64,000 nucleotides of DNA. Source: Eledone cirrhosa (taxonomy: Eukaryota). The stretch spans positions 104,470,001 through 104,534,000 of the forward strand of contig OZ024742.1 in NCBI GenBank assembly GCA_964016885.1, in the 5' to 3' direction. Shown here in pieces: positions 5,778 to 62,744 of the stretch. The notes under the pieces were generated by a model, which was not told the DNA's origin, ran no database searches, and was given only the letters and a program-made list of their open reading frames with translations. Made by a program: the position numbers and the translations under genes. The first letter of the stretch is position 1. Each line of letters opens with the position of its first letter.

Positions 5778-5975
5778 GATCGTGCCTCGAGCTGGTTGCC
5801 AGAGAAATGATTGTAATATATCCAATAAATTCCATTCGTCGCAACACTGATTCTCTTTTTTTTTTTTTTGCGATATCATACTCTGCTCTGTGAGAGCATC
5901 GAGTGCTCGAATGACCTACCACATATGGACGCTTTAAGCATCCAACACCAATTATATATATATTACATTCACACA

Positions 5976-6054
5976 CAGGGTGTCCCAAAAAATGTATACA
6001 CACTTTGATTAGAATGCTGTTGAAGTGTGTATATAATTTTGAGGAAACACCCTG
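5976..6054. mobile_element. Tc1/mariner-type mini-MITE (~80 bp)
   Basis: TIRs CAGGGTGTCCC.../...AAACACCCTG followed by TA. A second copy in the opposite orientation is at 29288-29372. Confidence 0.8.
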
Positions 6055-6059
6055 TATAT

Positions 6060-6226
6060 GTAGATTCCAGAGTTGTGTCGGAGGGTAACCAGAGTTAAAA
6101 ATGTTATTCAATACATTGGTAGAGTATAGGCATTTTTATTATATATAGAAATGACTTCTACTGTTTCATTCGTTTTGAAATCATCATCAGGAATGTCCTG
6201 ATACGAATGAAACAGATCTAGTCCTA
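6060..6226. mobile_element. TA-embedded fold-back element with hammerhead-like core on the minus strand (6154-6197)
   Basis: Leader motif at 6103-6126. Minus strand reads GACATTC-CTGATGA-...-GAAACAG-TA-GAAGTC. Related to 12150-12250, 34710-34885 and 38555-38600. Confidence 0.6.
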
Positions 6227-6787
6227 TATATATATATATATATATATATATATATATATATATATATAGAAAGTGAACAGCACAAAATATAACTACTCCA
6301 TTACCAAAAGTTTCTGGATCACAGACGATAATAATATCTCTGGATCGTTCGTCAGATAGAGATGTTATGACATCTCTATCTGACGAACGATCCAGACGTA
6401 TATATATTATTATACATAGAGCACTCTTTTTCCCTTGCTTTTCCTTTAGAATTACGTAACACAAAACATATATATATATATATATATATATACATATTTA
6501 TATCTCCTTATAATATATAACCACCAATTTCTGTCTGTCTGTCCGACAGTGGAAACACGTGCGCGCGTGGTTGCAATCTCTCTCTCTCTCTCCAGCTATC
6601 CCTCTCTTTTAGTCTGTCTGTTTCTCTCACTCTCACTCTTTCTCTTTGTAACACACTAACATTCCTCCCCTCTATCGCTGTGAAGAATGGGGAGATGGAG
6701 GAGGAGGAGGAGGAGAGAGTCACTTCGTTACTTCACCTCTGCCTTTCTTTCTCTCCCCTCTCACTCCCTCATTACGTACAGACATTA

Positions 6788-6978
6788 GGGCGGTGGATTG
6801 GCAGAATCTGTAGAGTCGGACACCATGCTTCATAGCATGGAGTTACGTCCCTTTACGGTCTGAGTTCAAATACCGCCGAGGTTAACTTTGCCTTTCATCC
6901 TCACGGGGTTGATAAAATAAAGTACCAGTAATGTACTGGGTAATTGCTGGCCTTGTGCCAAAAGTAGAAACAATTATT
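6788..6978 (+). mobile_element. SINE A short form, full length
   Basis: Colinear with 2427-2613. Confidence 0.9.
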
Positions 6979-7095
6979 AGAAACATTGCTTCATTTTTAC
7001 ATATCTAAGCATTAGTAAAATAACTAATAATTTCAAAAGTAATTTTTCAATTCCAATTGTTATGAACAGCAAAACATTAATAATAATTTTGTTTT

Positions 7096-58147: not shown

Positions 58148-58149
58148 CT

Positions 58150-58379
58150 TTAAGCCTTCAGCTTTTAAACTGGCCATATCTGACTAGAATTCTCTCACCT
58201 CTTTCTGTTCAAACCGGCCATAACCGATGGTTCATACTTATGTTAAGGTATTGTTCTCAAAATATACATAACATCAAAATCTCGTAGATTTGATATTATG
58301 TGAGATATTATGTGAGATAAATCCTTTACCATCAAAATACAGTAGTAAATGTAGAGTAATGTAAATGCTAAAGGGTTAA
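58150..58379 (+). mobile_element. piggyBac-like MITE, copy 2
   Basis: Colinear with 817-1033; intact right end TAAATGCTAAAGGG-TTAA. Confidence 0.82.
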
Positions 58380-61300
58380 GAAAGGTACTAACTCAAAATA
58401 AGAACTGACTCTGTGATAATTCATTCAGCATGGAAAGCTGAGGAAAAGAGATGATGGTGGCACACACACACACACACACACACATACACACCTATTTTAA
58501 AGTTCTAAATTTCTTATTTCTCTTACATACCCAGTAGCTGTCCATGTTTTCTTTACATGCAACAACCTTAGTGGAGCAAGAAGGACTTGCTGGTTGACTG
58601 ATTATAAAAGCATGGGAAAAAAATATAGTGAGTTGGTTTATTGTTCATGTGAGACCAAAATGGTACTATTGTATAGTTTGTTGCTTTATTTCATATTTTT
58701 TATTTTTTTATTTTTATAGTTATTGTTGTTGTGTTTTGGTTTATCTGTTTTATAAATAAATTTGTATGAGGAGAGAGAGATTTCTTGGCTAAATAAAGTG
58801 TCATAGACTAGTTTTTTTTATGTGTTTTATAAGATGATGCATTGAATGTAACAAGGTAGAGTGCTCCTAGCCACAGAATGTAGTGTTGAGTGCCATGGGA
58901 AGGAAGGTTAATTATCACATGATAGAGTGTTCACTGTCATAGGATCATGTGTTGAGTGAATGTCACAGGCTGGAATTGTTCATGTCACACAGTCACGTAT
59001 TCAGTGAGACACCAACTCCCTCGAAAAAATGTGTTGACTGTTATTAACTAGAGTGATGCTAAGGTGAAACCCGAACAACGAAGATAAAAAGCAATCAAAA
59101 CATAACTGATTAGTGTCTGTATGTGTTTCTGGATGCACAGCTCTTGATATAGTTGTAGGGGAACCATCCTGACATACATCTGGAGCATTTTTTAAAAACC
59201 TGACAGAGCCCATCCTTCTCTAGATCTGGACACAGCTGACTTCTTCCAGAGAGATATATTGAGTGATATATTGAGGAAGATTTAACTCCAGCACTAAACT
59301 AGTACTTTATTTTATTGACCTCAAAAGGATGACAGGCAAAGTTGACCTTCATAGGATTTGAACTCAGAGTGCAGAGAGTCAGAAAGAATACTACAAAGCA
59401 TTTTTTCTAGCATTCTATCAACTCTGCCAATTTGTCACCTATGATTAGTGTATAATGTTGACCAACCTAAAAATCAAGTGTAAAATCTTGAAATGACTTA
59501 CTGATTAACAGAAACCCAGCTATTGCTGGTATTCATGTTCAACTGAGTGTACTGTAGCAAAGTGAAACTGTTTTGCTCAAGAACATAACATGCCATTTGG
59601 TCTAGGAATCAAACCCACAATACTATGATCATAGGTCCAACATCTTTACCACTAGGCCATGCACCCTCACTTTATGTAAAAGCTTTTTCTTAAATTATGT
59701 ACCAAACACCAACTTATTAATGATTTCTAATTTAGGTACAAGACCAGCAATTTTGAAGGCAAAGGTAAAGTTAAATAAATCAAACCTAGTACTGAAAAAG
59801 TTCTTTATTTTATTGACCCAGAAGGATGAAAAGCAAAGCTGACCCTGACAGGATTTGAACTCAGGACATAAAGAGCCATAAATAAATACCACAAAGTATT
59901 TTGTCCAACACTCTAAGGATTCTGTTAAGCCGCCATCCTAAACATGAACTTAATAATGAGAAAATTAGTTATATTACTAAATCCTTCAAATTCCTGGCTA
60001 TTTTTCAAATTAACTGAAACACAAACAATGTTTCTCATTAGAAATATTGTAATGAAAGGGTTAACAAGATCTAAGTGAAATTAGTAAAACCTTGGGTGAG
60101 ATCTATATGGCATATAAAAATACTGACAAAGCTTAAATGAATTGTGTAAAATGTTGATAAAATTCAAGCATCAAATATAAAATACTGATAAATTTGAAAA
60201 ATCAGTGTAAATATGCTGACAAAACTCAATGTATCAATGTTGAATGTTTACAAAATTAAAGTTATCCCTGGACAGACAAGAAGATAAATACAAAATGTAA
60301 AATAATCAATATGTTCCATGATTAATTGAATTGCATGCATGCATTTATGTGTGTGTGTGTGTGTGTGTGTGTGTGTGTGTGAATGAACCCATAACTCCAG
60401 GTGGAATTGTAGGGGCACTGTAGTAACATACAGCATATCTTGTACTTTTTTTTATTGGCTTTGAATGGAAGAAAGGCAAAATTAAGGTTGGAAAGATTTG
60501 AGCGGAGAGAGCTTAAATAAATACCACAAAACATTCAACATTCTAACGACGTAGCCAATTCACTACCATTGATATGATAATTAACATCCAATATGTAAGA
60601 TGGGAAATGTGTTGTTGGAAGAGGGAAATAAAGAAGTTTCCGGAATGATTGTCAGGAAATAAAACTTTTGAGAAGTCAACAATGAAATATTTCAAAATGT
60701 TATGGGAAGTGACGTGAAATAAATAATAGGAAAATTATAATTTAAAGTTGCCTTGCATCCTTTCAAAATTAATAAAAAAAAGTACCAGTCTAGTACTGGG
60801 GTCAATTCTACCTCTATATCTCTTGTGAGAGACTTCTCTCACACTTTCTCTTTTTCCTTCTCTGAAAGAAATCAGCTGTGCTAGACCTGGAGAAAGATGG
60901 GTTCTACCAAGTTTGAAATGCTCAAGACACACCATATGTCACTACAATGCTTGTCTCATAAAAAATTACAGGTCCATACATACATAAGATGTTTTTCCAT
61001 CTATGTGTATCTGGTTTAGAATAGGTAAAACATGTCGTGGAGTGTCTTAAGAAGCAACTAAAAGTTTAGGTGTCAGGAAGGGTATCCAGTTGTAAAACAT
61101 TGCCTCGCAAAATCCCATCTAACTCAGGCCTGCATGGAAAAGTCGACATAAGAACAAATAAGAGAAAACAATAAAGTTCTGATCCACTCTATGCGTTTTG
61201 TCATGTCTACTGACTGGATATTTACCATACAATTCCCATTGTTAATAATTCTCTGCTTTTCAAATACTTATAATGTTATAGGAAAAAAATAATAAAATTG

Positions 61301-62259
61301 AAATCTTAGACAACATTATTGCATGTGATTATTTATATCTTGTGGTTGTTGCAGAATTACTGACATTTGAATAATTTATATATGTGTGTGTTTGTGTGTG
61401 TATATTAAAATTGCAATATTGGGCCACCCCACCCCATGGCAAAGGCAGAGCAAACCACTCACTCTTTACCTAGTTCCAAACCTTAGTTTAAAATCATTGG
61501 TACCTTATAGGGACCATATTAGATATTAAGCTAAGAACAGATATTACACTTTGATCTGAGAAGTGATTTCAATATTGGACACAGCAATTGAAGAGAATAG
61601 GTATAATCTTTTTCTGGGGAAAATTAATTGTAATAGACTAATATCATAAGTAGTAACCAAACCGAAATACAGATCTGTATGAGCAAGACGTGGTCACCCA
61701 TCCTGAATTGTCTCATAACATGAGAACCTGTCTAATCCATGCAAGCATGAAAAATGAACATTAAACGATGATGATAATATACACACACATATATAAATAT
61801 ATTGTGTTCGTATGTGTTTGTGTGTGTGTATATATATATATACACACACACACACACACACATATATATATGTATATATATATATATAATATATATATGT
61901 ATATATATATATATATGTATGTATATATATATATATATATATATATATATATATATATATATATATATACAAACACCCACACATAAATATATCTATAAAC
62001 TACACAATAATTTGTCATGCTTTATATTTATTTCTGTTTGTATATGTAAAGTTTTCTTGTTATAATGTTTGTGTCAATGAGACGAAAATATAATTACTCT
62101 ACAAACTAGAATGACAAGGCTTTTTTTATACTGTGATAAATAAACACAAATAACAATATATATATATATATATATATATATACTAAAATTAACATAGTGT
62201 AATCATGCATGTATATATGTAATACATATATATATATATATATATATATATATATATAT

Positions 62260-62450
62260 ATAATTGTTTCTACTTTTGGCACAAGGCCATCAATTATCCA
62301 GTGCATTACTGGTACTTTATTTTATCGACCCCGTAAGGATGAAAGGCAAAGTTAACCTCGGCGGGATTTGAACTCAGAATGGCAAGGCCCATAACTCTAT
62401 GCGTCAAAGCATGGCGTCCGACCCTCTACCTATACTGCCAATCCACCGCC
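62260..62450 (-). mobile_element. SINE A short form, full length
   Basis: Reverse complement of family A within (TA)n. Confidence 0.92.
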
Positions 62451-62744
62451 ATATATATATATAATATACATATATCATCATCATATATATGTATATATAT
62501 AAGTATATGTGTGTGTGTGTGTGTATATATATATATATATATATATATATATATTTAATAGGGAGTTGATGGACCCAGCATATTTACCAGGACCGGTTGT
62601 ATCTCAGCTTACTCAATAGGTAATGTAGAATACATTCCAGAGTATACACATAGTTATTTGCTTCAATACAACACACGTAAACGGGTGCCTATAGTAGTTC
62701 CCAGACTCGAGTTTTGGCCACACTTATATATATAATATATATAC

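Follow-up and report, generated by a model that had tools for sequence, protein, structure and literature searches.

Inserts in (TA)n tracts of an Eledone cirrhosa contig as probable ends of Hydra-clade Penelope-like retrotransposons, and a twin hairpin in intact elements of that clade

The window analyzed here, 64,000 nucleotides of contig OZ024742.1 from Eledone cirrhosa (assembly GCA_964016885.1, positions 104,470,001 to 104,534,000 of the forward strand), is AT-rich and contains numerous (TA)n tracts, in or beside which lie short inserts sharing a motif that is termed the box in this report. The inserts are interpreted below as ends of Penelope-like elements (PLEs) of the Hydra clade. All 14 sites for which the motif had been predicted carried it. 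A descriptor built from the predicted consensus matched the window 15 times at a threshold of at least 15/18, against 1.1 matches expected from 20 local dinucleotide shuffles, and nine times against 0.1 at 16/18 or more; this test is partly circular. The 15 matches comprised 11 predicted sites, two new element sites (12283 and 34614) and two chance-looking matches (49281 and 49776), and the predicted sites 12918 and 51700 scored below 14/18. A box model trained solely on sequences from outside the window gave a weaker excess, with six matches at 13 bits or more against 1.9 (maximum of five in 15 shuffles) and nine against 3.9 at 11 bits or more. The predicted association with (TA)n was likewise recovered: at 11 of the 14 sites a run of at least four TA units started 56-84 nt past the beginning of the box, against a background of 16% per comparable 100 nt. 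The top-scoring GCTC/GAGC-type box of the window, at 10269-10297 (+) between (TA)n and (GA)n tracts, was excluded from the elements; hammerhead, fold-back and nearby (TA)n end were all absent there. Motif matches in viral contigs (42, none in a hammerhead or (TA)n context) were taken as chance.

The motif had been described as a leader, written as a linear word and placed upstream of a segment that recurs in inverted form. Hammerhead remnants read outward from each fold-back center, and the RNA-sense strand is therefore opposite to the one assumed. On that strand the motif lies downstream of the hammerhead and forms the 3′ end of each insert, so that the term leader holds for intact tandem elements alone, where the motif stands in the leader of the open reading frame (ORF). 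The linear word was replaced by a bulged hairpin, of which intact elements carry two. Its general form is RCTC-[stem-loop]-TY-GAGY-RC, and the window form is ACTC-[stem, loop, stem]-TY-GAGT-R(C/A), where a 2-nt bulge interrupts the hairpin. Within the window boxes the two sides of the inner stem vary together (TAC/GTA, TGC/GCA, CAA/TTG, CAG/CTG and TAA/TTA), with 82% of cells paired over 15 sites against 61% when partners were shuffled and none of 5000 shuffles as high. In the boxes of intact elements the inner three pairs were formed in 82% of cells against 30-33% when one side was slid (about 31%), and 0 of 5000 partner shuffles reached this value; the figure covers 45 of 49 boxes (four with an inner part shorter than 6 nt were dropped), retains a few misassigned rows and leaves relatedness uncontrolled in the shuffle. 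Pairs were counted by anchoring, the MAFFT alignment of the boxes being right-justified and unsuitable for pair counts. In two boxes the outer stem was altered to GCAC/GTGC.

Fold-back structure was found at most sites, as predicted. An inverted copy scoring at least 40 was present at 9 of the 14 (background 4.2%), a tenth site, 5906, has a more distant inverted copy, and an inverted 5′-truncated copy with a tail at one end only was seen at 10 of 14. Contrary to the earlier statement, the inserts were not all otherwise dissimilar: seven of the 14 fall into three families of 72-76% identity, namely A (6104, 12179 and 34759), B (9589 and 51700) and C (32104 and 56390), within which the copies differ in fold-back center and arm length. 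For the boxes at 9564, 13636, 32079, 39261, 51674, 56411 and 12313, the inverted arm comes to within 1-9 nt of the box, and two short copies of the 5906 family stop about 3 nt before the box position. A large nested palindrome at 5217-5777, with a perfect 71-bp core (5421-5491 / 5507-5577), duplicates a short-ended copy of that family on both sides.

Derivation of the inserts from DNA transposons, as miniature inverted-repeat transposable elements (MITEs) or as Helitron2/HINE with asymmetric inverted repeats and a terminal hairpin, is largely refuted and very improbable. The end-located inverted repeat, its internal copy and the small hairpin do resemble Helitron2 ends, and a Helitron-like ORF fragment was seen by eye elsewhere in the window. 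However, arm structure is asymmetric and differs from copy to copy, the arms contain Hydra-clade-type hammerhead remnants, and a box with the same spacing was found in elements bearing a reverse transcriptase (RT). Inverted repeats at both termini with a structure fixed for the family were not found in the inserts; one arm lies inside the insert, 56-84 nt away from its end.

The inserts had also been predicted to hold whole or partial hammerhead cores. By alignment and eye, both core halves persist at five of the 14 sites (6104, 12918, 13609, 34759 and 56390) and only the 3′ half at six (5906, 9589, 12179, 32104, 39240 and 51700); a doubtful remnant was seen at 32798 and none at 10434 or 62609. 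Read together, the aligned copies of family A retain both cores along with a helix III of four pairs and the beginning of helix I. The result was weaker than predicted: remnants were seen by eye at 11 of 14 sites, and most of the hammerheads are broken. A hidden Markov model (HMM) of 30 Hydra-type hammerheads had no window match of 6 bits or more, and a strict descriptor matched once. A covariance model built from 17 outside hammerheads, the kind of Infernal scan that the original prediction had named, returned one hit among 18 at E<0.01 (13777-13848 (+), E=0.0024) and was otherwise weak, with 13015-13079 (+), inside an element, at E=0.18 and another hit at E=0.084 outside any element. CUGANGA occurred 29 times against 27.7 by chance, and hammerhead cores alone therefore prove nothing. 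In a small fold-back at 4985-5106 both arms carry CUGAUGA-like cores (83% over 30 nt), and a clear box is absent. In the hammerhead at 29965-30025 (-), located at 30014(-), helix III is short and a box is lacking; it was set aside as another PLE type, its style being that of a second PLE type seen in L166 and described below.

Intact elements were sought with a degenerate scan for the Hydra-clade RT motif, which gave at least 121 metagenome stretches, of which 80 had full flanks, together with 11 loci from genome records, and no match in viral contigs. The ORFs are about 700 aa long and carry the RWK, DKT and CxCx5C motifs given as diagnostic in PMC8557442. Among the 16 loci with a hammerhead upstream, RW[KR], DK[TS] and FDVxMG were present in all 16 and CxCx5C in eight, most of the others being cut off by contig ends or stops. 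Pfam recognized the proteins poorly (GIY-YIG at E=0.00033, below the cut-off, in one of three scanned, and no RT family match). By their diagnostic motifs, the loci (L045-L174) are assigned to Hydra-clade PLEs. Genome records titled as bacterial metagenome-assembled genomes (L164-L174) contain PLEs with (TA)n tracts, which are most likely animal DNA in the bins.

The 16 RT-bearing families have protein identities of 40-79% (median 49%) and share one layout. The order hammerhead, box 1, box 2, ATG was found in 16 of 16 loci with a hammerhead upstream of the RT motif (5′ pseudo-long terminal repeat, pseudo-LTR), and both boxes have exact right halves in 14, L164 and L121 being variants. Box 1 follows the hammerhead cut site by a median of 44 nt (n=31), box 2 follows box 1 by 46-78 nt (n=14) with a spacing that differs by family, and the ATG lies roughly 15-40 nt after box 2. 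Eight of 10 hammerheads classed as other types had no box within 200 nt downstream; of the remaining two, one belongs to a variant Hydra element, and a nested neighbor is present at the other. A GCTC/GAGC box was also visible by eye in published consensi from coral and sea cucumber (File S7 of PMC8557442), after the hammerhead in Hydra-2_Amil and Hydra-2_Ajap and twice before the ATG in Hydra-1_Ajap. A second PLE type in L166 (547-2256 and 2460; Pfam RVT_1 plus GIY-YIG) has a hammerhead with a short helix III, carries no box and reaches its (TA)n end about 50 nt beyond the cut.

Short fold-backs with the layout of the window inserts occur in L168, one of them from a family that encodes a full frame of RT and endonuclease (EN) in L166, where the hammerhead of that family lies 1322 nt after the RT motif. 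That copies within a family fold back at different points, and that this RT-encoding family gives the same fold-back, fits independent 5′ truncation with inversion. The same two facts bear on the possibility that the inserts stem from non-autonomous, retrozyme-like parents which carry hammerhead and boxes and borrow a Hydra-clade enzyme. Centers and arm lengths that differ within a family show that the fold-back is not an amplified unit, an ORF-bearing family yields the same short product, and no tandem array of units lies in the window: among its 82 tandem-repeat rows there was no head-to-tail array with complete hammerheads, and the inserts are single fold-backs. In favor of such parents, no insert extends to coding sequence, some families are highly repeated, retrozymes have been reported as PLE derivatives (10.64898/2026.07.22.740005), and an ORF-less unit with hammerhead and two boxes exists in L044. 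As to repetition, summed contig depth in a same-species run was 45,831 and 54,613 for two inserts and 104 for a third, with most flanking bins at 3-19; these values are not copy numbers. This origin, which is compatible with the box mechanism proposed below, appears on balance unlikely, though it is the least improbable of the alternatives. The L044 unit (2956-2675 (-), 281 nt) consists of a hammerhead, two boxes, a tRNA-like stretch seen by eye in which ARAGORN finds no gene, the hammerhead again and a (TA)n end, and is possibly a tRNA-headed retrozyme keeping the twin boxes. Four sequencing runs searched over 31500-35300 gave neither an empty site nor loose ends into a parent element among the matches listed, which were dominated by a short interspersed element (SINE).

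Copies tend to end beside the boxes. Among 17 hand-picked pairs of same-family copies, 15 were informative, and in 11 of these the end fell 0-6 nt before a box (six before box 1 and five before box 2). Two classes of end result: a short end just before box 1, and a long end before box 2 that keeps box 1. The usual end point is a TAT(A) patch continuing into (TA)n. For 26 of 27 Hydra-clade families, (TA)n insertion is listed in PMC8557442. Around 58 Hydra-type hammerheads, the first (TA)n run lay before box 1 in 16 (three of them internal runs), 51-71 nt after box 1 in nine and, within 200 nt, after box 2 in none. An RT that always writes the (TA)n tract itself is disfavored, since several ends lack (TA)n and 5′-truncated ends also abut (TA)n. 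Elements were also observed in or beside the ends of others (L204, L178, L194 and window 12262-12283), forming chains of PLE ends separated by (TA)n.

Box 2 lies close enough to the ATG that the boxes might instead serve translation, RNA stability or an internal promoter, with ends adjoining them through microhomology of AT-rich patches to (TA)n targets. The junctions at TAT(A) patches fit this explanation, and PLE hammerheads that have no box likewise end in (TA)n, 40-96 nt after the cut. Against it, the two end classes follow the two boxes despite their family-specific spacing, a (TA)n end after box 2 was never seen, and several ends that lack (TA)n are still at or near a box (L047 and L057). 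We consider it improbable.

Taken together, the window inserts are very probably ends of Hydra-clade PLEs. The original prediction of a Penelope-like or retrozyme-like origin is thereby narrowed on its Penelope-like side to one clade, and its non-autonomous families or retrozymes are not upheld. We propose, with a probability of roughly two in three, that the inserts are extremely 5′-truncated and mostly inverted Hydra-clade insertions, and that the twin hairpin sets two internal RT start points. The suggestion that the motif is a cis-signal for the mobilizing enzyme gains support, at the level of sequence, from covariation and from the position of the box at both insertion ends. By analogy with Poseidon of the anole (PMC11167929), the RT-GIY-YIG protein would cut AT-rich DNA on both strands and prime cDNA inside its own RNA. 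The Hydra-clade protein would bind the box and start copying just 5′ of it, where the TA end of the target possibly pairs with the UA patch beside the box. Priming would use box 2 on one target strand and box 1 on its partner, and the two cDNAs, after an early halt that often falls inside the hammerhead or just beyond it, would be joined head to head. The predicted product, a short arm, a center, a long arm with box 1 and (TA)n, has the structure of a window insert, and the one-sided PLE 'tail' would in this clade be box 1 plus the spacer to box 2. More tentatively, and with somewhat less than even odds, the hairpin pair could form two landing pads for a dimeric, telomerase-related RT across several animal phyla, with each protomer beginning at the short UA patch that directly precedes its box on the 5′ side and extending one cut (TA)n strand.

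The main rival keeps the same elements and lets the box act on DNA or antisense RNA, a cDNA hairpin or cruciform directing a cut by the GIY-YIG endonuclease beside the box. Tails have been attributed to EN-mediated resolution by Craig et al. (PMC8557442), the tail of the Drosophila virilis element is required for EN recognition of DNA as cited by Frangieh et al. (PMC11167929), rotifer PLEs were argued to use an antisense template (PMC3846280), and wobble pairs in the boxes show no preference for the sense strand. On the other hand, the only reconstituted PLE has tail ends that are RT start sites in an RNA stem loop (PMC11167929), the hammerhead and boxes lie on the ORF strand, and the loop varies in length while the stem covaries, contrary to plain duplex recognition. 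Action on DNA or antisense RNA is judged unlikely.

Several results weigh against the proposed origin and start-site function. No fold-back was found at four of the 14 sites (10434, 12179, 32798 and 62609), and the inverted arms of family A stop 15-30 nt before the box. Similarity to Hydra-clade proteins in the window reached E=0.14 at best by tblastn, with no coding partner found, and the window elements had no significant nucleotide match to the RT loci beyond short AT-rich ones. The window hammerheads are degraded, with one match at E<0.01 to a custom model, and no hammerhead family appeared among the 150 of 159 Rfam matches listed, which were mostly microRNA models on microsatellites. The pairs used for the ends were picked by hand, four of the 15 end 13, 14, 21 and 29 nt before the box, one family supplies 4 of the 11 box-adjacent pairs, and the stretch before each box is AT-rich, so that ends could gather there for that alone. 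Seven G-U-type and seven A-C-type wobble cells were counted, which does not fix the acting strand, and the box hairpins are thermodynamically weak (z +0.2 to -3.4), the predicted fold agreeing in 9 of 12. The ACTC/GAGT form was found in one RT-bearing locus (L116), most others having GCTC/GAGC. Finally, the box was clear in three of six File S7 consensi, degenerate in Hydra-1_Crog and not clear in Hydra-1_Amil or in Hydra-1_Obim, the sole published octopus Hydra consensus (PMC8557442). An ORF with RT and C-terminal GIY-YIG (RWK, DKT, CxCx5C) was also absent from the window, as expected for 3′ fragments.

Table 1. Boxes, fold-backs and related copies in the window (positions from the first base of the window; a dot marks a feature given no strand).
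Feature	Position	Strand	Hammerhead	Box and other details
Inverted short-ended copy, 5906 family	5340..5422	-		Ends about 3 nt before would-be box start
Direct short-ended copy, 5906 family	5579..5658	+		End point as in 5340..5422 copy
Box 1	5880..5906	+	3′ half, cut site 64 nt upstream	Inner stem TGC/GCA; (TA)n 73 nt after box start
Family A fold-back	6060..6224	-	Core 6190-6184, with deletion of helix III from this arm	Box 6125-6104; inverted arm stops about 30 nt before box; left boundary approximate
Additional fold-back, absent from original prediction	6269..6468	.	Near-complete, minus arm, about 6361-6296 (helices by eye)	GAGC-type box right half 6417-6424, plus arm
Family B fold-back	9434..9639	+	3′ half 9473-9451, inverted arm	Box 9564-9589; 63-nt arms; inverted arm ends 5 nt before box
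Box alone, weakest member	10434..10455	-	Undetected	Fold-back undetected
Family A copy	12137..12262	-	3′ half	Box 12199-12179; inverted arm absent; ends in (GA)n
Additional family B fold-back	12262..12398	-	3′ half 12363-12341	Box about 12314-12283, partly deleted
Fold-back	12855..13119	-	Degraded, 13015-13079 (+), inverted arm	Box 12939-12918, inner stem CAA/TTG
Fold-back	13559..13915	-	Best preserved of window, inverted arm 13777-13848 (+), E=0.0024	Box 13636-13609, inner stem CAG/CTG; inverted arm reaches to 5 nt from box
Family C fold-back	31953..32135	+	3′ half 32025-32038	Box 32079-32104
Box and tail to (TA)n	32775..32857	+	Doubtful remnant upstream	Box 32775-32798; no fold-back
Additional insert between two (TA)n tracts	34498..34689	+	Not found	Box 34587-34614, inner stem TAA/TTA; fold-back not found
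Family A fold-back	34708..34890	-	Core 34849-34843	Box 34780-34759, left half degraded
Short-ended family A fragment in (TA)n	38545..38600	-		No box
Fold-back	39205..39385	-	3′ half 39346-39359 (+), inverted arm	Box 39261-39240; boundaries approximate
Family B fold-back	51555..51750	+	3′ half	Degraded box 51674-51700; inverted arm reaches to 5 nt from box
Family C fold-back	56355..56560	-	Core 56488-56482 with stem II	Box 56411-56390
Box and tail to (TA)n	62554..62643	-	Not found	Box ending 62609; fold-back not found

The window contains other repeats. A SINE-like abundant repeat, extremely deep in all four sequencing runs, is present in at least 10 copies (2522, 6882, 21314, 23700, 24362, 33767, 36848, 45728, 51447 and 60742). 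ORF fragments resembling proteins of RTE-type non-LTR retrotransposons and of Helitrons were recognized by eye at 1426-1710, 15919-16401 and 55875-56306, and at 26140-26592. Long degenerate trinucleotide arrays, (ATG)n and (GTT)n, occupy 43663-43979 and 54576-55334, and a U2 snRNA-like copy with internal deletions at 61414-61567 (-) (75 bits, Rfam) is probably a pseudogene.

If the landing-pad view is true, a single step would account for both the one-sided tail and the inverted 5′ copy, and a portable cis module of about 150 nt would be sufficient for mobilization in trans. How PLE RTs choose internal starts, and how the one-sided tail and inverted 5′ piece arise, are called unresolved in PMC8557442 and PMC11167929, and a two-copy covarying signal at both end classes makes the start-site question testable by a small set of point mutants and compensatory mutants. 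Since no RTs are closer to telomerase RT than those of PLEs, an RNA anchor beside a priming patch bears on the evolution of template-bound RTs. The box could also reassign to PLE ends thousands of probably unclassified or MITE-labeled fragments in (TA)n-rich invertebrate genomes, the thousands being a guess from the window density of about 1 per 4 kb.

The Hydra clade, its (TA)n bias, hammerheads, inverted copies and tails are already known, and the twin end-marking hairpin appears to be undescribed. No description of a twin box was found in the PLE and retrozyme literature as far as the available text of PMC8557442, PMC11167929, PMC4209133, PMC13282606, PMC7229834, PMC3846280 and 10.64898/2026.07.22.740005 extends; Repbase, Dfam, subscription papers on Penelope tails and figures could mention it. 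Naiad and Chlamys PLEs resemble the inserts in their tandem and inverted structures and tail, with a (TA)n bias in Naiads, and differ in mostly lacking a canonical hammerhead (PMC8557442). In their consensi, four words of the box right half occur 15 times, with box context in none of the passages returned. Naiads were dropped as a partner because exact 11-mers of the window motif were absent (0) from the portion of the PMC8557442 supplement covered. Metazoan non-LTR retrozymes (PMC7229834; 10.64898/2026.07.22.740005) are likewise short and non-coding, with a type I hammerhead and kinship to PLE pseudo-LTRs; they are head-to-tail repeats of 150-450 nt with complete hammerheads, whereas the window inserts are single head-to-head fold-backs with broken ones.

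In Anolis carolinensis, the Poseidon protein cleaves the two strands of AT-rich DNA and extends each (Frangieh et al. 2024, PMC11167929), and it shares with the structure proposed here two internal RT starts downstream of the hammerhead that match tail ends, and a predicted dimer. It belongs to another clade, starts inside the ORF in an AC-rich stem loop and, in the text available, is described with no repeated conserved box. The closest system is the Hydra clade of PMC8557442. The window copies differ from it in lacking coding sequence and in having mostly ACTC/GAGT instead of GCTC/GAGC, their tails, at about 55-85 nt, are longer than the 30-40 bp quoted for PLEs, and the main text of that paper has no match to 'hairpin' or 'stem-loop' and relates no motif to the ends. 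They share with it (TA)n insertion, probable remnants of a type I hammerhead some 100 nt from the 3′ end in which core and helix III are of the same style, an inverted 5′-truncated copy with a tail at one end and, in the coral and sea cucumber consensi, the box itself.

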